DNA of 32,000 bases from positions 30,001-62,000 of the forward strand of contig CAYHAA010000002.1 in NCBI GenBank assembly GCA_964354495.1, given 5' to 3'. The notes beneath the pieces are model-generated. The model did not search any database, was not told the DNA's origin, and worked only from the letters and a program-made list of their open reading frames with translations. Positions 20,962 to 32,000 of this stretch are shown here, in pieces; positions within the stretch are counted from its first letter, which is position 1; each line of letters opens with the position of its first letter. A program made the translations under genes and the position numbers. This stretch comes from an uncultured archaeon (GTDB lineage Archaea; Asgardarchaeota; Thorarchaeia; Thorarchaeales; Thorarchaeaceae).

Positions 20962-21059
20962 AGGGTCAAAGAAGCTTGATACTCACTTAACTGTTCTCCA
21001 TTGTATAAATGGAATATTCCTCAATGGACTCTTCTGCAAATCAATGAGAACTATCGATT

Positions 21060-21098
21060 AGAAGAAACACACTAACCACCCTGCCATAGCTAGTGTGT
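21060..21098 (-). terminator. Hairpin plus pyrimidine tract after the giant-protein operon
   Basis: Minus strand ACACACTA-GCTAT-GGCAGG-GTGGT-TAGTGTGT-TTCTTC: 8 Watson-Crick pairs extended by 5 more (mostly G-U), starting 11 nt after the stop. Confidence 0.5.
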
Positions 21099-21108
21099 CA
21101 TGCTAGTG

Positions 21109-24100
21109 CTAGTCTAGGCTAATACCCAGGCTGTCTAGCAGGGCATCGAGGTCAGCTTTTGAGAGCCCTTTAGCCTCCTCTATGATGATGTCGATCTCGT
21201 CGCTAGCCATGCCCTTCTTGAGGAGCTTCTTCCGTAGGTCATCTAGCTCGCCTGGCATGTCCTGCAAAGGAACTTCCTCTTTCTTGGCAACGACCTTCAC
21301 AGGCTTTGCCAGGACATCGGCACGCCGAGCCTTCTCCTGGTCTATGACTTCTTTGAGGAATCCAGGTCTCTCGCTAGCCCTCATTCGTGAGAGATCAGCT
21401 CGGAAAGCATCAATCTCTGCCTCACCTAGACCAGTGATTGATGCCAGTTCTTCTAGCAGTTCATTGACCTCTGGAACCGTAGTCACTATTGGCTCCGGAG
21501 CTACGTCCTCTCTGGGTTTCACAAGGTGCAGTGAAGCTATCTCTTCATTCACAATAGTCATTGCCATGTCTTGTCTAGTGGGGGACTTGGGTGCCTTTGG
21601 CACACGACCTTTCGCCAGCGCACGAATCATTCGGCTCATGATGCGTATCTGTTTTGGAATGCTCCATACCTTCACATAACCCACTAGGAGTAGTGCCACT
21701 ATGAGGACTCCAGATCCTCCAGCAAAGGTCACCAACTGCTGGAAGGCCTGCTCTGCAGAGATGTCCGACTTGATGACCAATCTGATTTGTTGAGCGTCAT
21801 AGCCCTCCTTCACAATATTGATGATGATTGCATGGGTTCCTCCCTGAGTCAAGAGGAAGTAGAACGTATATGTTCCATCTTCATCTAGGGTAGACTGATT
21901 GTAGTAGGTAAACAAATTCAGATCCAGCTCCAAGGAATAGCTTCCACCGGTGATTGGAATATTATGGTCTAAGTCCATGTATGTCGTAGTGAAGGAGAAA
22001 GATACTCCGGGCTGGATCTGAATGGTCAGGTTTCCATGCACGGCGGCTGTCATGATTCTACGTATGATCACATCCAAGTGGATGGGCGACATAGTGTATT
22101 TCGTCGTGGCGAAATAGATATCGAAACCGTAGGTTTCGTACTGCAAATCGCCAGGGAGATTCAGAGTATAGTTGCCATTCGGCATTAGCAGAAGCTCGTA
22201 TTCACCCAGATCCGCGGAATAAGCAATTCCAATCACATCAGATATGGTGCTGTTGTCTAACATATTCTTCACATGGTAGGGAATCACAATGGTATCATTG
22301 ATTGGCGATGAGTAGGTTGTTGGACCGTAGATAGCGGCGGGAGTGGCATAGACCTCAATCCTAGCTATGGCTGTTCTCGCTGTGTAGTTCTGAAGGTTGA
22401 ACCTTACAACCAAATCATAGATACCTGGAGTTGTCACAGTGATGACCAGATCAACTCTGTAGGTTCCATTATCGTAGTCAGTTACAGTTGGGGTGCCTCC
22501 TTCCCAGCTGGCAATGACATTAGCTCCTCCAATGCCCACGTAGTGCTGAAGGTCATCATAGTAGAACTTGAAGCTGAGCGGCGCTCCGAAGTATCCACTC
22601 TCCAATGTGCTGCCTTCATCAACGGTCGCAGAAGTTGGAATGGGGAGGATTGTCACGATAATCGATTTCGTAGCGGTCGAGTAACCGAACTTCGAAGCTG
22701 TCAATCGTAGATAGATCGACTGAGATGGCAATGAACTTACATCAATGACAGCACTATACGTATGGTTCGTTTCCTCAGTCAATACGCCGGTTAGGCTCCC
22801 AATTGTGTAGCTCACATCCGCTCCACCTACTAGTGCACTGTAGAAGGTGTCATTATAGACCGCGAGGATGCTTAACGTATCACCGAAGTAGACCGTCAAA
22901 ACGGTCACGCCACTGGCAAGCTTCAGTTCAGTGTAGATTGGAACAACATTGATGCCAATGATGGTTTCAAGGAACACATGGTTGACTGAAGTAGCTCTCA
23001 GGGTAAGCGGATATTGCCCTACTGCAAAACCATACACAAGCAGATTAGCAGAATAGACGCCACCACCCAGATGAGAGAGAGGATAGACCGTACCATTGAA
23101 CTCCATTGTTACAGTAGCTGTGGTAACAGACATGGCAGATACAGTATCATTGAGGTACAGCTGAACGTCTATCGACGTATCAATCACAACCTCATAGGTG
23201 GAGAAATCAGGGATGATTTGACCTGTTGCTTTTGATACTATGAGATTGAATGTTCTCTGCCTTGGTTGATAATACTGCTTTGTGACGGATATCTGTGGAC
23301 TATAGACACCGAAGTCAGTATCTGACGAATCGACCAGCAGCGTGTAGTAGCCATTACCAACCTCGCTGAAGCCATAGAGCATGCCGTCCCACAGAAGAGA
23401 TGCAGTCATACCGGTGACTGGCGTACTGTAGTAGGGTTCCAAGACCTGGAAAGTGATGTTGACTAGTTCACCCCATTCTGCGTAGTAGGTGCTTCTCTCC
23501 AGGAATATCTCGACTGTGGCTGCACCAGGCTGCACAAATATCTCTGCCAGAGCAGTCTGATAGAATGGTTTGTTGGCATAGGCATGGAAGTCATACCTCT
23601 GCGCAAGCAATCCAGTTGTGTTGAGAGTGATAGTGTAGACACCATTTCCGAGCTCTGCCACTGAATAGCTTCTGCCAAACAGCGTTGTCCAATCACTTGA
23701 GATGACTGCACCTGACAAGGGCAGGTCATGGTCAAAGTCAACAAGAGTAATGACGACCACGATCGGTGCTCCCACAGCTGTAGAACCAGCAGGAGGAGCA
23801 TCGGCAATCAGAGAAGTCTGGACCTCCCTTATGGTTGCTGGAACGGCGAGTGTAATCCTGGTTGAGTAGAAGGGTGCGCCTGACTTGCTGAGAGTGAAAT
23901 CAAAGAAGACAATTCCAGTGTATCCGAAGATGCTGCTATTGATGAGGATTCTGTAGTTACCGTCGCCCTGTCGGACCAACGTGTACTGAGGTGAAGACCA
24001 GTTACCGCTTGTTATCAGCAACTGAGCATCATCAATACCGGCCCCTGTCAGGTAATCGACATAACTGAGCTCGATAGTTATGTTATCAAAGTACGGAGTA

Positions 24101-27100
24101 TCTTCCACGAGTGGAAACAGAATCTGGGTTGATCGTTCTACTGTCGATGCAGTTGTTGAAGTGCTTCGAGGTGCGTAATAGGGGACGCCGGGCCCTAGGT
24201 CGATTGTCATTTGAATAGGATGCCCAGTGACGAGGGCATCAGGACTGATGATAGTGGAGTTAAAGACTATCTCATAGTATGTTGAGTATTCATTGAGAGT
24301 GTAACTGCCGGATGCGATCACTGTGTAGAGGGGTCCATGTGTGAGTGTGATATGACTCTTCGTTATTGCTATCTTGGTGCCCAACAAGTAATCCGTGAAT
24401 TTGAATCGGAGGACCACGTTTTCAAGGAAGGAAACACTCCCTGGAGTCTGAGTGATAAGAATCTGAGTTGTTCTCGTAGTGACCCTCGCCAATACATCTC
24501 TCGAACCAGGAAGGTAGAACGGTTCTCCTATGAATGTTACAGTGACAGTGAGGAGATAGTAACCAGGTGCACCAAGAGCAGTCGTGTCGACCTCGATGAG
24601 ATAACGACCGTCACCCACGTATTTGAACCAGTAGTTTGAGTTCAGCACTAGTGCATAACTGCCATTCCCGGATACAGCAATGGCAGCACCGGGAATACCT
24701 CTTCCTGTGCTATCATCAACATAGGTGACATATAGAGTAAGATTAGATGAATATGGTGCACGATCCGGACTATCATAGCCTAGTTGAGTGGACCTCTTTA
24801 GTACCGATATGTCGAATACTTCGACCGCGTTTGCATAATACGGGTATGTATGGACAACGGCAGCTGTGACAGAGTATATTCCATCTGCTGGAAAAGCTGT
24901 TGTATTCAACGTAACTATAAAACGTCCCTCTGGACTGTATACGACAGTGTATTTATCTGCTGGAATATTCAATGTCAATGTTCCGGTCATGCCAGTAGCC
25001 GAGCCAGCGATTATGTCAGTGTAAACGAAGACGATAGTTATGTTGTTGCCCCACTGCCCGAGGCTAAACGACAGGTGAGAGAGCTGCGTTGCCCTTGTGA
25101 CGACGTTGACAGAGAATGTCTTGCTCTGAATTGAAGCATAGAACGGTGCTCCGGTCCAAGTTAGATTCAGGTGAAGAACATGAGTTCCGACACTTCCTAT
25201 CGATGCAGTATCTATGTACAGTGTGAACTCCTTGGTCGCTGGGTTATATGAATAGGTGAACGTCACACCTGCATCGTTCAGGTCAATATCGAGTTGAATC
25301 GATTCTCCGATTTTCAATGAGGTGAGCGTATCGACAAAACTGAAGAGAAACTCAGCTTGTTCACCATAAGGAGTGGAGGCAACAGGTGTGTAGTCAACAT
25401 ATGTAGGTCTATCTAGTAGAATCAGTGAAACAACCATAGTACCATTCTCATATAGGGGACTCTGCCCTTTCCTCCACATGAAGGAGAGCTCAAATCGAAA
25501 TGTATCTGTACTTGAGAATAGTGAACTGTCAAGAATGAAGACATAGGTACCAGGAACCGATTCAGATTCAATCACCGTGAAATCGCTCTGAGTGACCGAG
25601 TTGCCCGCATCAAGTGCCGTAATTCGTAGAAACACGTTGTCCGTGCTGTTGCTTATTCTCTGCAGGCTTACGGTGTCCCAATAGATCACTGTGAAGTTGA
25701 AGGTGTTCAAGTAGTAGGTAGCAGTCGGTGCGAGTTCAAGATACAGATCAGTATCTGTCCCTGTTATTCTTGCGCTGGTGTCTATCGTCTGACTATAGAA
25801 CTTGTCAACAATCCCAGTCCACTCAATGAGAATATATAGATCCTTCCATCCAATACTTCCCCATTGGTCGCTTGGGATGCTGACATTGTAGTGCCCTAGA
25901 CCAAGAGAAGACTGGGCAACAGAGCATACTATACTTCCAATTTCCGGGGAAGTCATAGTGAGTCTCACTTCTCCTGTGAAGTTGCCGATGCCAACTCGGA
26001 GCTCTGTATCCTGATAGAAGACAAGTACTGTAATTGTACTTCCATAGGGTGTCTGTACGATGGGTGCGTCTAGTACAAAGAGGGTGTTTCTTTTCCGTAT
26101 CTCAACAGCGATGTCAAACGTGTGATTCAGATGGTCATCTTTCATCACATTAAATCTGACATCGATGAAGTCCGACCCAGTCAGAGGATCACTCGACTTG
26201 GTGAAGATTGTAATGTTGTACTTCCCGGGCAAAGTTTCGACAACTGTGTAGTTCGTATCGCCCGAAATATGGAAAGACGTCCAGTTGCAGGTGATTGAGG
26301 AGCTAGAGCCCGTGATTGGTGTCCCGTGGTCAGTATCGGTCCATGTCAATAGGAATGAGGACGCCTCACCAAGAGGTATTGATAGCTGATTAGAGGTGTA
26401 TGTGATGGACGTATAGATCTCTCTTGCTTCGACATACATCAGCATTGTCTGCGGCTCTACGAAGGATCCCGTTGCATAGACACGGACTGGGTATTCACCA
26501 ATCTCCATGCCTGATACATCAAGTTGGAATTCGAACTGACCCATTCCTAGTGAGACTACGGTGTAGGGGTTAGACCAATCGCACCATAGGTTTCCCTCTG
26601 AGATTCCGGTCCCATTGACATTGGCGAAGACCGCGGTAAATGACTGATCGTCACCGACAGGACCAGAAATGCCAGGATAGTCAGGCGATGCTAAGGTGGC
26701 CGCATAATTGACGTTTATCGTGAGGTCAGTACTGGACGAATCAAAGTATGGATGAGTCCATTCCAAGTCCATAACATATTGACCACTTCTTGAAAGACCC
26801 GATGTGTCTATTACTTTGGTATATTGACCATTTCCATTGTCATCAAATGTTCCAACACCTAATGACCAATCGAGAGTCATGGTGCCCCCAGGAACAAGAA
26901 CAGTGGGTGAGTAGCTGTCGGTATCTTCCACTTCCAGAATAATGAGCAATAGGTCTCCGAAGGTCACATTAGTGACCATTGTTCCAACTGCATCGTTCGG
27001 ATATATTAAGACTATATCAGAAGCATGAACCACCCCGAATGGTCTCTTAAATAATCCGACAGAGGTCCGTTCTCCATCTGCACCCAGATTGTTGGTTATT

Positions 27101-28863
27101 GCCTGAACCATCCAACTGCCGGCTGGAGCAGACGATCCATCAAGCACAAATGTCGTGGATGTTGCATATCCGGTTCCGTTAGCGACTGGCTTCACAGTCA
27201 ACCACTCAAGCCCGTCTGGTCTGTATATGGTGATGTTGACAATCGATCCAGAGAAATCAGCGCCTACGTAAGCGCGCACTCTTGTCGTATCGCCAGCTCT
27301 GAGGGTAGGAGTACGAGTCCAACTGCTCGTATCTTGATCCCATAGCTCCAAGTCAGATATCATGTTTGGGGAACTGCTCAGAACTCGCCAATATCCGTAT
27401 CTGCCAGGCTCACTAGTGATATCATAGGTTGACACGTTGAGAAAGCCATCATTTGGATTACCTCCAGTCCAGCCGGATGTAAGATTCGTTGTCGGCGCGA
27501 GCGGCTGCCCAACGAAATAGACGTCTCGTGCTGCAGGAATTGTCTCATTGAAGAAGTAGCGATTCGCATATCCCACGGGGATGTCTGCCCTGAAGTACGA
27601 TGTAAAGTCGGTATCCGTTCCGTTTCTTACGACAAACCTCTCACCGTATGCTAACGGACTTATCTCGTAAAGGCTTTGTATGTCATAGTGACGTGCGAAT
27701 AGGCCGACTGCGACATCAAAGTCGACTCGAATCTCTTTGTTTGGACTCGGCGTGGACGGAATCGGAGTCCATGAGAAGGTGAGGACGACAGGTGAAGTAG
27801 TCCAAGGTGTGGCAGGAATCTGCGTTATTGAGCATGTCCCGCGTGAGGCTCCATTGCTGATGCTGAGACCATTCATCTGTAGACTTAGTTCACTCGGATT
27901 AGCCAAGGTCTTCAAGTACAGCTCGATATTATCAAACCTTCCCCGAGGATGAATATTGGGTTCATAACCCACCGCTGCAAGCGATTCTAGACCGATTCGT
28001 GTGGTTGCTGTCGTATCGCCAGGTAGTCCAAAAACAGACGGGTTGACAGTGATCAACCCCGAGTTGTACCATGTTTCTTCAGCTCCGATATCGCCGAATA
28101 CTTTTCGCCAGACGTCAGTACCCTCAATATTCGCGATGAGTCGAAACGAGCCAGTCATTCCATAGTGAGTATCATCTACTGTGTCCGCCCAGTAGTCTAG
28201 GCGTAGGGCCGCCCAGACCACTGTCCCGCGAGTTACTGTCGTTGCCTGTTGATAGGCGGCAATATCGCCGTCATCATAGTAATAGGTAGAACCGCCACTT
28301 GTGGAGTCTATATCGACCAGTATGCAATCATCATTCAATCCGTGCCCATCATTGAGCCATGATGATGTTGGAACGCTCGAGCCAGCAACGTTTGTGTTTG
28401 ACACAACCCAGTCAGCAGCGCTGTCCTGAAACCCAGGATTCGTTATCCAGGTTCTGTTCTCAGTCAGGCTTGAAATTTGCACTCTGGCTTCATAGGCTTC
28501 CCAACCAGTACCCATGTAGACACTCGTCTGGACTGTGGTTGTGCCACTGCCTGGAGTGTACTTCATTTGCCGGCCGAGGAAGGTATTGGTGCTGTTTCCG
28601 AATTCTGAACCGACAATCGGGTCACTGAAACCGCTCCATTCCGTCCAGCCTTGGTCTGTCAGGACAAACTTGTGCAACTGCTCATAGGGCGCAAGTTCCA
28701 CGAACTCGCCATTTCCGATATCAACCTTGCGAGTATCGTCAGAGGCGCCAGCATTCAGCGTAGGAATTGTTCGTAGAACCGATGCCTGCGGAGCAAAGAT
28801 TATTGGAGCTACCATGAGAGCTATCAAGATTGCCAGTGGTAATAGGTGTCTGATGTCTTTCAC
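21109..28863 (-). CDS. Giant (2584 aa) single-pass surface protein: signal peptide, ~600 aa tip region, ~17 Ig-like repeats, TM, 184 aa cytoplasmic tail
   Basis: N-terminal hydrophobic signal; beta-rich ~100 aa repeats; about 40 N-x-S/T sequons by manual tally; TM near 21664-21740; charged helical tail. Confidence 0.9.
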   Translation of the reverse strand: MKDIRHLLPLAILIALMVAPIIFAPQASVLRTIPTLNAGASDDTRKVDIGNGEFVELAPYEQLHKFVLTDQGWTEWSGFSDPIVGSEFGNSTNTFLGRQMKYTPGSGTTTVQTSVYMGTGWEAYEARVQISSLTENRTWITNPGFQDSAADWVVSNTNVAGSSVPTSSWLNDGHGLNDDCILVDIDSTSGGSTYYYDDGDIAAYQQATTVTRGTVVWAALRLDYWADTVDDTHYGMTGSFRLIANIEGTDVWRKVFGDIGAEETWYNSGLITVNPSVFGLPGDTTATTRIGLESLAAVGYEPNIHPRGRFDNIELYLKTLANPSELSLQMNGLSISNGASRGTCSITQIPATPWTTSPVVLTFSWTPIPSTPSPNKEIRVDFDVAVGLFARHYDIQSLYEISPLAYGERFVVRNGTDTDFTSYFRADIPVGYANRYFFNETIPAARDVYFVGQPLAPTTNLTSGWTGGNPNDGFLNVSTYDITSEPGRYGYWRVLSSSPNMISDLELWDQDTSSWTRTPTLRAGDTTRVRAYVGADFSGSIVNITIYRPDGLEWLTVKPVANGTGYATSTTFVLDGSSAPAGSWMVQAITNNLGADGERTSVGLFKRPFGVVHASDIVLIYPNDAVGTMVTNVTFGDLLLIILEVEDTDSYSPTVLVPGGTMTLDWSLGVGTFDDNGNGQYTKVIDTSGLSRSGQYVMDLEWTHPYFDSSSTDLTINVNYAATLASPDYPGISGPVGDDQSFTAVFANVNGTGISEGNLWCDWSNPYTVVSLGMGQFEFQLDVSGMEIGEYPVRVYATGSFVEPQTMLMYVEAREIYTSITYTSNQLSIPLGEASSFLLTWTDTDHGTPITGSSSSITCNWTSFHISGDTNYTVVETLPGKYNITIFTKSSDPLTGSDFIDVRFNVMKDDHLNHTFDIAVEIRKRNTLFVLDAPIVQTPYGSTITVLVFYQDTELRVGIGNFTGEVRLTMTSPEIGSIVCSVAQSSLGLGHYNVSIPSDQWGSIGWKDLYILIEWTGIVDKFYSQTIDTSARITGTDTDLYLELAPTATYYLNTFNFTVIYWDTVSLQRISNSTDNVFLRITALDAGNSVTQSDFTVIESESVPGTYVFILDSSLFSSTDTFRFELSFMWRKGQSPLYENGTMVVSLILLDRPTYVDYTPVASTPYGEQAEFLFSFVDTLTSLKIGESIQLDIDLNDAGVTFTYSYNPATKEFTLYIDTASIGSVGTHVLHLNLTWTGAPFYASIQSKTFSVNVVTRATQLSHLSFSLGQWGNNITIVFVYTDIIAGSATGMTGTLTLNIPADKYTVVYSPEGRFIVTLNTTAFPADGIYSVTAAVVHTYPYYANAVEVFDISVLKRSTQLGYDSPDRAPYSSNLTLYVTYVDDSTGRGIPGAAIAVSGNGSYALVLNSNYWFKYVGDGRYLIEVDTTALGAPGYYLLTVTVTFIGEPFYLPGSRDVLARVTTRTTQILITQTPGSVSFLENVVLRFKFTDYLLGTKIAITKSHITLTHGPLYTVIASGSYTLNEYSTYYEIVFNSTIISPDALVTGHPIQMTIDLGPGVPYYAPRSTSTTASTVERSTQILFPLVEDTPYFDNITIELSYVDYLTGAGIDDAQLLITSGNWSSPQYTLVRQGDGNYRILINSSIFGYTGIVFFDFTLSKSGAPFYSTRITLAVPATIREVQTSLIADAPPAGSTAVGAPIVVVITLVDFDHDLPLSGAVISSDWTTLFGRSYSVAELGNGVYTITLNTTGLLAQRYDFHAYANKPFYQTALAEIFVQPGAATVEIFLERSTYYAEWGELVNITFQVLEPYYSTPVTGMTASLLWDGMLYGFSEVGNGYYTLLVDSSDTDFGVYSPQISVTKQYYQPRQRTFNLIVSKATGQIIPDFSTYEVVIDTSIDVQLYLNDTVSAMSVTTATVTMEFNGTVYPLSHLGGGVYSANLLVYGFAVGQYPLTLRATSVNHVFLETIIGINVVPIYTELKLASGVTVLTVYFGDTLSILAVYNDTFYSALVGGADVSYTIGSLTGVLTEETNHTYSAVIDVSSLPSQSIYLRLTASKFGYSTATKSIIVTILPIPTSATVDEGSTLESGYFGAPLSFKFYYDDLQHYVGIGGANVIASWEGGTPTVTDYDNGTYRVDLVITVTTPGIYDLVVRFNLQNYTARTAIARIEVYATPAAIYGPTTYSSPINDTIVIPYHVKNMLDNSTISDVIGIAYSADLGEYELLLMPNGNYTLNLPGDLQYETYGFDIYFATTKYTMSPIHLDVIIRRIMTAAVHGNLTIQIQPGVSFSFTTTYMDLDHNIPITGGSYSLELDLNLFTYYNQSTLDEDGTYTFYFLLTQGGTHAIIINIVKEGYDAQQIRLVIKSDISAEQAFQQLVTFAGGSGVLIVALLLVGYVKVWSIPKQIRIMSRMIRALAKGRVPKAPKSPTRQDMAMTIVNEEIASLHLVKPREDVAPEPIVTTVPEVNELLEELASITGLGEAEIDAFRADLSRMRASERPGFLKEVIDQEKARRADVLAKPVKVVAKKEEVPLQDMPGELDDLRKKLLKKGMASDEIDIIIEEAKGLSKADLDALLDSLGISLD
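21745..27024 (-). repeat. About 17 tandem degenerate ~100 aa Ig-like protein repeats
   Basis: Recurring pattern T-x-L...Y/W-G...Y-x-D...I-x-G-A...G-x-G-x-Y-x-I-x-I-D/N-T...F-Y; no clear nucleotide-level repeat. Confidence 0.75.
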
Positions 28864-31800
28864 TCTTCCGACCCTCCTATTTCACGAAGTAGTGCGTCTA
28901 TCTCAGCTCTAGATAGATTGCGAGCCTGCTCGATCATGAGGTCTGCCTCAGTTTCCGCAATTCCCATCTTCATCAATCGCTCCTTGAGGTGTCTGAGCTC
29001 CTCATTAGAGAGCTTCTCAACTTCGATGCTTGGGCGTTTCTCGGGCGTGACGCCCTCAGTCTCGGCAAGCTCCCTAGCTCGCCGAGCACGTTCCTGTTTC
29101 AAGACTTCATTGATGAAGCCGGCACGTTCACTCGGCCTCATCTGGTCGAGATCCCTCCGAAGGGTATCAACATCGCTTGCGGTCAGACCAACCACAATTG
29201 CGAGGTCTTCAAGCAGAGCTTCGACATCCATTGCGGCAACATCGACTGTCGAAACTGAAATGTCCTCAATGGTCTTAACTACGGCTACACCTGCAAGTTC
29301 CTCTTTCATCATGGCCAGCAGCATATTGCGTCGTACTGGAACATTCGCTGGTTTGGGAATGCGGCCTCTCCCAAGAACCGACACCATGCGTCGCAGAGTC
29401 CGAAGCAGCTTTGGAACTGATAGTACCTTGATGTACAAGGTTGCAAGAGCTGCCAGTGCCAACATACCAAGTGCAGAGAACCCGAAGGTCCTAGCAAGTG
29501 CTAGCTGCGCCGCGCTCAGTTCGGTATAGATATCCAGTTCTACTGACGAAGTCTGATAGTCCGCCTTGCTGAAATCGATGCGAAGGCTATAGAACGCCAA
29601 GTTGGGGGCGCGGAAAGCAAGTGTATAGGTCCCGTTGCCCCAGTTAATGTCCAGATTATATTCCCTGATAATTCCGTCATCAATAACATTAATGATAGCA
29701 TCAGTGATCATTGTGTCATGGTCCTTATCCCAAAATGTGACATTGATAAGGAAGACATCACCGACATAGATGTGTGAGGGTGGCTCAGTATAAGTCTTAT
29801 CTGTCAGGATTCGCCGGATGGTCAAATAATGCTCAATCTCCATTCTCGAGTAGTTTGCTCTTGAGAGAGATATTCTGATTCTGTAGGGGAGATCTCTGTA
29901 TTGAAGAGGTGTCGCCAGATTTGTTTCATTCGGCCCAAATACATACGAACCATTTCCGAGATTCGTTAGAGTAGCAGTCCCGAATTCCCACACAGCAGTG
30001 GCGACAGCGTCAGTAACCCATGCATCATTGAGGGTGTCTCTAAAATTGAAAAGCATTGAATAGTTGTCATATACTGGATACTCGGCTTCAAGAGGACCTT
30101 CTATTTGTGTGGGGATGGGCATCACAAGCAGTTTGGCAAGCCCGTAGGCGAACCTGTAGTTCTCTTTCCTGAAAGTCAAAGATATGTCGTGTGGTATCGC
30201 TCCAGCTGATGCAATAGACGTATTCAGAGTAAGACTGTACGTCCCATTTGCATAATCCACAAGCGATCCTCGTGTTTGCTCCAGAGTGTAGTTCGTGATT
30301 GCGCCCGCTATTCCTTCGTTTGCATGAGTGTCATTGAACAAGAAGTAGAATGTCACAATCTCACCGTAGTAGCCTGCAATCGTACCACTAGTGAGGATCA
30401 CAATCGCAGTTTCGATTTGTTCAACTGTCAATGTGAAGTCAAATTGAGACGGGGTGAATCCCGGTTTAACACTGGATATGGATACAGTCCATTCTTGCAC
30501 GCTGAGGAATGATGTGTCAACGAAGGCGCTGTAGTAGCCAGGAGTTGCCAACTCTACTAGACTGCCAACGATGGAGCCCACCCCAAAACTGAGAGTAGCG
30601 CCATCGACAGGCAGATTGAGATCAGTATTGTTCAGATACACGGTGATAATGACAATATCCCTGTAGTTGCCTGAGATTACTGTGTTGGAAATTGGGACGA
30701 GCTGCGTTTTTATCTCTGTAATCTCAATTGTCACCACAGTGCTAACGCTCTTGTAGTTAGGGGAGGAGGCTTGGATGAGAATATGGTGGTTGCCAACCGG
30801 AGCGCCATTCACTACAAAGGAACCAACATATTTGCCATCGATGGCTGACCAGTCAATGAAACCGCTGCCGCCAACCCAGGAGAATTGAACTAATCCGTCC
30901 ACTGAGATTGGAAGGCTGGTAGCATACTCAAGGTAATCAACATAGACCGTGACTGTCTCACCGTTGACAGCGGAGATTGGATCGATGGACGCAACAATCT
31001 TCGCAGCGATTTTTTCTATGCGGATCTGGAAGTCCCGCAGCGCTGTTTCGTAGTTGACCAGAGAGGACTGCACTCGAATCGTGTACTCACCTGAGGTCAA
31101 TGAAGAAGTGAGAACGGTACAATTGTACAGACCATCAGCCACGGGTGTCATATCGAAGGTCAGTAGACCAATCGTCAGATTGACATCTGCTCCAACAACT
31201 GGGAAGCCCGTCCTAGCATCTGTGATATTTGCTTGGAACTCCACACTATCGCCCCACATGGGACTCTGAGGAGTGAAGATCAGCTCAAGCAAAACAGGCA
31301 CTGCCGCGAGAAGAATGTCCGCCTCAATACTCTGACTCAGATGGAGGTATTTGCTTGCATTCACAATGAACCGATATTGCTGAGCATTGAGTCCAGAGGT
31401 GTTGATTGACATCTGGTATATGCCAGGTGCTATTTCCACAATAGTGGTGTCAGTCCCGTATCGTGTGAACCAATCAGTTGTTATGGTAGCACTTGGTACT
31501 CCTGTGCCAAATGCAATGGCTGTGTAGGTGATGTTGGCATAGACCATATCGCCGAGATAGTGTGTGACTCCCTCGGGCAAAACAAAGCTCAGAGTCGTGG
31601 ATACTGGATTCACGGATATGCCGAATTTCACACCAATAACGTCGCGATAAAATGGACTGCCAGACCATGTGAAATTGGCTTGGAAGAAGTACCTGCCAAG
31701 GCCAGCTAGACTATTCGAGTCCACAATGACCGCGTAAGTACCATCAGAATTGTCGATAATCCAATAGTCAAAGCTCGATGTGTTCGAGCAGCTCACGCTG

Positions 31801-32000
31801 ACACTGGCACCAAGAATTGGAGCACCGGTCAAATAGTCGCTGAAACGTAGGAGAGCAGTCACATTGAAGTAGTAGTAGCCGGGTGGCGTCTGCAGCACCG
31901 CCGCTTGGGTGAATCGTGCTACGATAGAAACCTCTGTCGAAGAGGACGCATTTCCATAGTATGGAGTGACGTCGCCCCATACAAATAGTATGGATATCAG
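28860..32000 (-). CDS. Second giant surface protein, paralog of 21109-28863 (5' end outside the window)
   Basis: The frame is open from 32000 (LISILFVWGDVTPYYGNASSSTEVSIVARFTQAAV-LQTPP...). Eight full repeats, TM and a 186 aa tail. Its TGA overlaps the downstream GTG start (GTGA). Confidence 0.9.
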   Translation of the reverse strand: MISILFVWGDVTPYYGNASSSTEVSIVARFTQAAVLQTPPGYYYFNVTALLRFSDYLTGAPILGASVSVSCSNTSSFDYWIIDNSDGTYAVIVDSNSLAGLGRYFFQANFTWSGSPFYRDVIGVKFGISVNPVSTTLSFVLPEGVTHYLGDMVYANITYTAIAFGTGVPSATITTDWFTRYGTDTTIVEIAPGIYQMSINTSGLNAQQYRFIVNASKYLHLSQSIEADILLAAVPVLLELIFTPQSPMWGDSVEFQANITDARTGFPVVGADVNLTIGLLTFDMTPVADGLYNCTVLTSSLTSGEYTIRVQSSLVNYETALRDFQIRIEKIAAKIVASIDPISAVNGETVTVYVDYLEYATSLPISVDGLVQFSWVGGSGFIDWSAIDGKYVGSFVVNGAPVGNHHILIQASSPNYKSVSTVVTIEITEIKTQLVPISNTVISGNYRDIVIITVYLNNTDLNLPVDGATLSFGVGSIVGSLVELATPGYYSAFVDTSFLSVQEWTVSISSVKPGFTPSQFDFTLTVEQIETAIVILTSGTIAGYYGEIVTFYFLFNDTHANEGIAGAITNYTLEQTRGSLVDYANGTYSLTLNTSIASAGAIPHDISLTFRKENYRFAYGLAKLLVMPIPTQIEGPLEAEYPVYDNYSMLFNFRDTLNDAWVTDAVATAVWEFGTATLTNLGNGSYVFGPNETNLATPLQYRDLPYRIRISLSRANYSRMEIEHYLTIRRILTDKTYTEPPSHIYVGDVFLINVTFWDKDHDTMITDAIINVIDDGIIREYNLDINWGNGTYTLAFRAPNLAFYSLRIDFSKADYQTSSVELDIYTELSAAQLALARTFGFSALGMLALAALATLYIKVLSVPKLLRTLRRMVSVLGRGRIPKPANVPVRRNMLLAMMKEELAGVAVVKTIEDISVSTVDVAAMDVEALLEDLAIVVGLTASDVDTLRRDLDQMRPSERAGFINEVLKQERARRARELAETEGVTPEKRPSIEVEKLSNEELRHLKERLMKMGIAETEADLMIEQARNLSRAEIDALLREIGGSEE

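Follow-up and report, generated by a model that had tools for sequence, protein, structure and literature searches.

Architecture of the gene pair

The stretch analyzed here (called the window throughout) comprises 32,000 nucleotides (nt) of a Thorarchaeota genome and corresponds to G000:C2:30001-62000 of a 3.3-Mb assembly that is 97.7% complete. Two giant genes occupy its last part on the minus strand. The downstream gene (the "dn" type) lies at 21109..28863 (-) and encodes 2584 amino acids (aa) between a GTG start and a TAG stop, as delimited by its open reading frame (ORF), its translation, and full-length orthologs. The 3' part of the upstream gene (the "up" type), namely its last 1046 codons, lies at 28860..32000 (-), and the rest runs past the window to G000:C2:67542. 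When the sequence is taken from the genome beyond the window, the complete upstream gene encodes 2893 aa, and both surface proteins have a predicted size of about 280-310 kDa. The genes are joined by a GTGA stop/start overlap at 28860..28863 (-), in which the upstream TGA occupies 28860-28862 and the downstream GTG 28861-28863. Around this site the upstream frame ends in GAA GAG TGA and the downstream frame opens with GTG AAA. The GTG is taken as the right start because orthologs have ATG at exactly that position, and a GGAGG-like purine run lies 9 nt before it, within the last codons of the upstream gene.

A preliminary description of the window had placed two paralogous ORFs joined by this overlap at the same minus-strand coordinates, and all of it was recovered, including the repeat motifs that it quoted. 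Within the window, BLASTP of the two products returned a single collinear alignment of 1050 columns with 29% identity (E 1e-117). Retrieval of the upstream contig, which had been recommended, yielded the full paralog, and the two proteins are collinear over their whole length: residues 160-2580 of the downstream protein align with residues 441-2889 of the upstream protein with 32% identity, and their N-termini share 39%. The sole large difference is an insertion of about 300 aa in the upstream head, which is a six-bladed NHL beta-propeller according to Pfam. From the full-length collinearity it follows that all 17 repeats pair one-to-one. The in-order match of the last 8 repeats described earlier is thus true, yet it is the visible part of a whole-gene collinearity. 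The preservation of the membrane-proximal stalk length, which had been deduced from this match, is weaker as an argument, since the match reflects collinearity after tandem duplication; a stronger argument comes from the repeat number and protein length, which are fixed across 66 orthologs. By sequence comparison, the pair arose through whole-gene tandem duplication.

The downstream protein begins with a signal-peptide-like N-terminus (aa 1-28; 28780..28863, (-)), which has a hydrophobic window at aa 10-18 and aligns with the N-termini of orthologs. It is followed by a head (aa 29-620; 27004..28779, (-)) of a jelly-roll and then beta-sandwich domains, and by a stalk (aa 621-2360; 21784..27003, (-)) of 17 tandem immunoglobulin-like (Ig-like) beta-sandwich repeats of about 100 aa, delimited by an iterated repeat profile, AlphaFold2, and Foldseek. 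A single transmembrane (TM) helix follows at aa 2379-2400 (21664..21729, (-)), modelled as a helix with a predicted local distance difference test score (pLDDT) >90. The upstream protein follows the same plan, from its signal peptide and jelly-roll/beta-sandwich head down to a single TM helix at 29421..29486 (-). Self-BLAST detected no repeats and an iterated profile was needed; seeded on one repeat, it counted 17 repeats in the upstream protein and 16 plus one divergent unit in the downstream protein, the latter assigned from spacing as it fills a 118-aa gap.

AlphaFold2 modelling of downstream residues 28-830 with 23 orthologs, which covers the head and the first two repeats, gave an all-beta structure of beta-sandwiches with a pLDDT of 82. 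Foldseek matched the ectodomain model to chains of Ig-like, FN3, and MG domains, including those of archaeal and bacterial surface-layer (S-layer) proteins, the MG domains of alpha-2-macroglobulin and complement, titin, and the ectodomains of receptor phosphatases. With VIA-align, model residues 110-293 matched the N-terminal region of reelin, the MAM domain, and the ligand-binding jelly-roll of ephrin receptors (Z 10.5-11.6), and model residues 470-790 matched complement MG, SbsC, SlaB, and adhesin-extender domains (Z about 10-12). These model-based matches indicate a fold class, and neither homology nor function. No curated Pfam family reached its cut-off on the stalk, where Cadherin_5 (E 0.37) and Filamin (0.052) remained below threshold.

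The 35 residues after the TM helix contain 9 K/R and 0-1 D/E. N-x-S/T sequons are about twofold enriched in the two ectodomains, with 41 against 20.7 +/- 4.1 and 54 against 28.9 +/- 4.4 in shuffled sequences, and number 0-1 in the tails. The excess of K/R after the membrane together with the distribution of sequons places the tails in the cytoplasm. The type I topology with the tail inside and the layout of an Ig-like stalk, one C-terminal TM helix, and a cytoplasmic domain of about 185 aa, both of which had been proposed from the window, are therefore upheld.

The cytoplasmic tails of the downstream protein (184 aa; 21112..21663, (-)) and the upstream protein (186 aa; 28863..29420, (-)) carry the same three boxes, which also align across the tails of a second giant pair of the same genome described below. 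The basic juxtamembrane box opens with a nearly invariant Y-V-K/R-V-W-S-V/I-P-K at the TM end and is followed by box 2 (21304-21483 (-) in the downstream protein) and the C-terminal, three-helix box 3 (21124-21243 (-)). The AlphaFold2 model of the tail consists of helices only (pLDDT 81, predicted template modelling score 0.36), with boxes 2 and 3 each forming a small three-helix unit. Searched with a tail profile, 1.84 billion cluster representatives yielded only 142 proteins, and in all of them the tail is C-terminal on a giant protein or on a fragment of one. Three tail lengths occur, with about 189 aa in the type of the window pair, about 245 aa in the type of the second pair, and about 410 aa in a class that carries box 3 four times. 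The only proteins with box 3 in the window's own genome are four giants, which are the members of both pairs. A "tailed giant" family can be defined by a TM helix, a Y-x-K/R-V-x-S-V/I-P-K box, box 2, and box 3, all C-terminal on a giant beta-sandwich protein, and its members include the two window proteins as well as the second pair.

The class with four tandem box 3 modules of about 55 aa is represented by P0101, P0124, P0126, and P0146 (3371-4257 aa), and the tandem copies suggest that box 3 can be repeated as a unit in its own right. The short "proteins" P0174, P0176, and P0178 consist of box 3 repeats alone and look like contig-end fragments of such tails. In the metagenomic P0204 (245 aa), an undecaprenyl-diphosphate-synthase-like N-terminus precedes two box 3 modules, possibly through a chimeric assembly or gene call. 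P0051, a fragment of 1423 aa, bears the NCBI name "type II toxin-antitoxin system VapB family antitoxin", and box 2 of the window's downstream protein (21304-21483) has a sub-threshold match to PSK_trans_fac (E 0.022); the fragment was almost certainly misnamed because of a weak local match.

Nothing came near threshold when the tail was searched against Pfam and NCBIfam (RecX_HTH1 0.03, SAP 0.056, PSK_trans_fac 0.022), and Bap31_C, matched on a relative with the four-module tail, stayed at 27.7 bits, below its cut-off of 30 bits. The ESM Atlas gave no usable match, sequence profiles of the PDB gave chance-level matches only (EF-hand-like, uS15, and designed proteins), and Foldseek on the PDB and the AlphaFold database (AFDB) returned none with E <0.01. 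With VIA-align, one three-helix unit of the tail reached a Z of at most 7, which is under the noise level for helical folds. Readings of box 3 as SAP/HeH, UBA-like, or MIM-like were dropped, as nothing supports them. The idea of a sensing apparatus put forward in the preliminary description found no support either, the tail having no recognisable signalling or enzymatic domain.

Constraint along the protein was measured as identity to the window protein in an alignment of 66 full-length downstream orthologs (2552-2600 aa, median 2579). The head and stalk had mean identities of 0.53 and 0.565, and the last (17th) repeat had 0.37. The tail was the most conserved region with an overall mean of 0.69, and boxes 2 and 3 reached 0.84 and 0.80, respectively. 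By these alignments, the cytoplasmic boxes are the slowest-evolving part of the protein. Gaps accounted for 0.5% of stalk columns, and from this low fraction together with the narrow length range the repeat number is concluded to be fixed. Bacterial repeat adhesins usually vary in repeat number. The constraint profile is opposite to that of such adhesins and is unexpected for an S-layer anchor.

Distribution and descent

All named homologs of the downstream protein belong to Thorarchaeota or carry a generic Asgard label, and all are annotated as hypothetical. Since all named relatives fall there, the earlier assignment of the window to a probable Asgard archaeon is confirmed and narrowed to Thorarchaeota. 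With one genome scanned for each GTDB species, 121 relatives in 71 loci were found, essentially all of them in Thorarchaeota, and the nearest relative was the isolate OWC2 with 92% tail identity. When the tail profile was run over 400 Asgard genomes, it was detected in 81 of 85 genomes of the window's family, including 27 of 27 of its genus. It was also strong in one other family (19 of 19) and weak elsewhere.

The paired arrangement recurs in these relatives. On three contigs with gene calls, the downstream type was again adjoined, before or after, by a paralog, and the same housekeeping neighbours as in the window were present on two of the three (a class I Trp/Tyr-type tRNA synthetase, LPG-synthase-like, UbiA, and DUF362). 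In a six-frame scan with the tail profile, the upstream tail always ended exactly at the start of the downstream gene wherever a locus had enough upstream flank. A 4-nt NTGA overlap is present at 29 of the 33 junctions, which come from 30 distinct loci; it reads ATGA at 23, GTGA at 5, and TTGA at 1 of them. The remaining junctions comprise 1 TAATG, 2 with a 4-nt gap, and 1 of the second-pair type with 173 nt. A survey for this arrangement, suggested at the outset, thus revealed a conserved coupled unit. The homologs are paired, their tails are neither variable nor missing, the tail does not lie outside, and no characterisation of the family as an S-layer was found.

On contig_23502 of a 916-kb Thorarchaeota assembly (L009:1347-10004, identical to L036), the upstream paralog was called as four ORFs of 1407, 915, 283, and 297 aa. 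Together they make up one gene of about 2900 aa, broken either by long-read frameshift errors or in a decaying copy, and neither the downstream gene nor the ATGA overlap is disrupted.

In a maximum-likelihood tree of 62 tails, the upstream and downstream types formed two clades of 29 rows each, with support of 100/98 and 99/98. The two clades branch in mirrored order, and one deeper lineage is split into an upstream and a downstream branch of its own. The two mirrored clades indicate that the duplication predates the radiation and that both copies were kept with no homogenisation by gene conversion. One genome contains two pairs in the order (up-dn), 325 nt, (up-dn), and consecutive locus tags in two other metagenome-assembled genomes indicate two pairs as well. 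Where copy number changed, it appears from these loci to change by whole pairs. Upstream orthologs fall into two length classes, with 2870-2923 aa when the NHL propeller is present and 2599-2631 aa when it is not; besides the window's genome, the propeller occurs in roughly a third of the listed upstream relatives.

Surroundings of the pair and related giants

A terminator-like 14-bp hairpin followed by a U-rich run lies at 21059..21100 (-), 10 nt past the downstream stop codon. Its RNA fold has an energy of -19.9 kcal/mol (z -3.2), and none of 200 shuffled sequences was equally stable. A TATA-like ATTTATA is located after the hairpin and before the next gene, which encodes a class I Trp/Tyr-type tRNA synthetase. 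At the other end, the upstream gene is preceded by a 320-nt intergenic region that it shares with a divergent acyl-CoA synthetase-like gene. Hairpin, TATA-like element, intergenic region, and purine run fit a single transcript with coupled translation.

Genes upstream of the pair encode an ADP-forming acyl-CoA synthetase-like protein, a small membrane ORF, and a leucine-rich-repeat (LRR) protein. The latter, of 373 aa, lies with a 1166-aa Laminin_G_3-like protein at G000:C2:70004-74700 (L100:2605-7301:-), 2.5-7 kb upstream and on the same strand as the pair. No GTPase was seen near the LRR gene, and in three other contigs the LRR gene does not adjoin the pair.

The second tandem pair with the same tail family lies outside the window at G000:C1:411902-433852 (L006:1403-13669:+, L007:168-9653:+). 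Its members, here called the C1 type, have 4089 and 3162 aa, 22 and 21 repeats, and DUF2341/LamG-like heads. They are 42% identical over 2178 aa and are separated by a 169-nt spacer with no overlap; Thorarchaeota SMTZ1-45 (L077) has the same spacing of about 173 nt in its C1-type pair. Genes for GluRS, alkaline phosphatase, ThiI, and DUF2334 lie upstream of the second pair.

The juxtamembrane box extends beyond Thorarchaeota. The same combination of TM helix and juxtamembrane box is present in large beta-sandwich proteins from other Asgard families (L085, L092, and L097 (G263:C84:41604-51662); L086 and L091 (G304); L087 and L095 (G128); L088 (G149)). Their pattern reads aromatic-x-K/R-V-L-K/R-F/Y-P-K-x-V-R-K-x-R followed by G-K/R-x-P, boxes 2 and 3 are usually missing, and G263 has four such genes in tandem. 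Compared within Asgard archaea, the box may act as a phylum-wide signal by which type I surface proteins are sorted or docked. The window's own genome contains about 60 open frames >1000 aa, at least 12 of which are over 2200 aa. Many of these have a signal peptide, a C-terminal TM helix, and a short basic tail, and they form several unrelated families of giant surface proteins, such as a 4666-aa frame on contig C8 and a 3349-aa protein on contig C10.

Interpretation and comparison with known systems

According to the sequence evidence, the locus is an old two-gene operon, almost universal in Thorarchaeota, that encodes paralogous giant type I membrane proteins, predicted to be glycosylated, and its two genes have been passed on as neighbours since before the family radiated. 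The two proteins probably serve as non-redundant subunits, produced together, of a surface fibre or coat that is glycosylated, fixed in length, and tied to a conserved cytoplasmic partner. Translation from a single transcript would yield both in coupled amounts, and after Sec-dependent export and N-glycosylation they would stand as long rods on the single membrane. An Ig-like domain measures about 4 nm, from which a fully extended rod length of about 70-90 nm is estimated. Equal stalk length would put both heads at the same height, where they would probably act together in a mixed fibre, a coat, or an adhesion layer. Boxes 2 and 3 most likely dock the rods to the conserved putative cytoplasmic partner, which would position, anchor, or sort them. 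This docking is proposed because the two boxes evolve more slowly than any extracellular part. A physical association of the two chains is plausible because of the equal fixed stalk length, the coupled synthesis, the 1:1 retention, and the duplication as a pair.

Several observations count against this interpretation. Stop/start overlaps are common in archaeal operons and are no proof of a complex. The unequal stalks and the spacer of the C1-type pair mean that equal length and coupling are not general across the wider tail family. No RNA sequencing run containing the locus was found, and the DNA runs that contain it do so weakly. Pfam, NCBIfam, the ESM Atlas, PDB profiles, Foldseek, and VIA-align gave no significant match of the tail to a known family or fold, so that a cytoplasmic partner is deduced from conservation only. 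A co-fold of the two TM-plus-tail segments, run with paired 31-row alignments, scored 0.00, which gives no support for association and is not evidence against binding.

The strongest competitor, which is possible but considered unlikely, takes the two proteins as independent parallel adhesins that do not associate physically, bear different heads for different ligands, and are co-transcribed merely as a result of tandem duplication. In its favour, roughly one in three of the listed upstream orthologs has a head that differs by the NHL propeller, the genome encodes many further giant surface proteins, and the co-fold of the tails lent association no support, although this does not speak against binding. 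However, independent adhesins would not account well for the retention of both members at 1:1 in two old clades, the 4-nt overlap at 29 of 33 junctions, duplication by the pair and not by single genes, or a repeat number that is identical and fixed in both members.

A far-reaching extension of the fixed-length fibre is regarded as rather doubtful. Here, a heteromeric fibre would dock through boxes 2 and 3 onto the Asgard cytoskeletal, ESCRT, ubiquitin, or small-GTPase machinery, with the juxtamembrane box as a common sorting or docking signal. It would then represent an independently evolved counterpart of the eukaryotic adhesion receptors that couple cell-cell contact to the cell interior.

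It is quite unlikely that the proteins are two subunits of a true paracrystalline S-layer, with a canopy on long stalks and a tail that serves only in anchoring or assembly. The near-universal pair, its fixed length, and the enriched sequons would suit an S-layer, and the domain matches include Nitrosopumilus 8c8o, Haloferax 7ptp, SbsC, and SlaB among other Ig-like chains. These fold matches are, however, generic for Ig-like chains, and 17 repeats would build a layer far taller than usual. The 185-aa tail is the most conserved region, unlike in known archaeal S-layer proteins, whose cytoplasmic parts are, to our knowledge, very short or absent. Cultured Asgard archaea also have no ordered S-layer (PMC9834061).

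The reading of the pair as cargo of an aloposon-like mobile element, as described for Otus and Ephialtes of Heimdallarchaeum, can draw on the tandem giant genes noted in Thorarchaeota by Wu et al. 2022 (PMC8813620) but is highly improbable and was rejected, as ARAGORN detected no tRNA gene across the 32 kb of the window or within 8-10 kb on the flanks of the two pairs, no MinD/ParA block or integrase is present, the neighbours are housekeeping genes that recur in distant relatives in conserved synteny, and the gene trees are mirrored as expected under vertical descent.

Cultured Lokiarchaeia have no S-layer and display unidentified protruding surface proteins, which have been invoked in models of the cell-cell contacts leading to eukaryotes (PMC9834061, PMC12993045). 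The pair offers a concrete candidate for the surface coat or adhesion fibres of Thorarchaeota, being near-universal, ancient, fixed in length, and probably glycosylated, with an intracellular domain under stronger constraint. It provides three targets, namely two ectodomain heads for binding assays, one tail family for pull-downs, and epitopes for cell labelling or environmental cryo-electron tomography. If the tail binds cytoskeletal or trafficking proteins, the pair would couple surface and cytoplasm in archaeal relatives of eukaryotes; if it binds no such proteins, the pair would still be the first described envelope component family of its class. No paper was found that describes the architecture, tail, coupling, or distribution of the pair, for which databases give the name "hypothetical protein" or domain-level guesses, and for the tail, neither Pfam and NCBIfam nor the solved structures nor the literature yielded a description.

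A close genomic parallel is formed by Otus and Ephialtes, giant genes that likewise lie next to each other in an Asgard genome and are homologous to one another. Compared by their described hallmarks and not by sequence, the window genes fall just under their range, with 2584 and 2893 aa against 3000-6000 aa. In contrast to Otus and Ephialtes, the window pair lacks both the tRNA site and the four-gene block with ParA, and it shows synteny and vertical inheritance. The tandem giant genes that Wu et al. 2022 (PMC8813620) mention in Thorarchaeota, with no account of architecture, tail, coupling, or distribution, exceed 3000 aa and are probably pairs of the C1 type.

The resemblance to cadherins, integrin alpha/beta, immunoglobulin-type cell adhesion molecules, and the MAM-Ig-FN3 receptor tyrosine phosphatases is one of working principle only. 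A long beta-sandwich ectodomain, one TM helix, and a slow-evolving conserved tail are common to both, and the jelly-roll matches MAM and ephrin-receptor domains with a Z of about 11. However, there is no homology at the level of sequence or family, as no cadherin, integrin, or FN3 family reached threshold and the tail matched nothing.

The bacterial fibrillar and giant adhesins SiiE, LapA, and MpIBP are also very large surface proteins in which an N-terminal lectin-like or beta-sandwich head is followed by a long stalk of Ig-like repeats of about 100 aa, and the adhesin extender region 6xi3 is among the fold matches of the window ectodomain model. While these adhesins depend on a type I secretion system, an LPXTG motif, or an outer-membrane plug, the window proteins are anchored by a C-terminal TM helix and a conserved 185-aa tail, and their family is an obligatory paralog pair with 17 fixed repeats.

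Archaeal S-layers offer two precedents, as SlaA and SlaB of the Sulfolobales are encoded by two co-transcribed genes and the tetrabrachion stalk of Staphylothermus extends over tens of nm. At the level of sequence and model, the window proteins share with archaeal S-layer glycoproteins a signal peptide, Ig-like chains, many sequons, and a C-terminal membrane anchor, for which neither Pfam nor NCBIfam gave a match to a PGF-CTERM model. In contrast to S-layer subunits, the window subunits are paralogs, both are membrane-anchored, and both have a large, highly conserved cytoplasmic domain. Giant Ig-repeat surface proteins are known from prokaryotes; new is the combination of obligatorily paired paralogs and a dominant tail in the cytoplasm.

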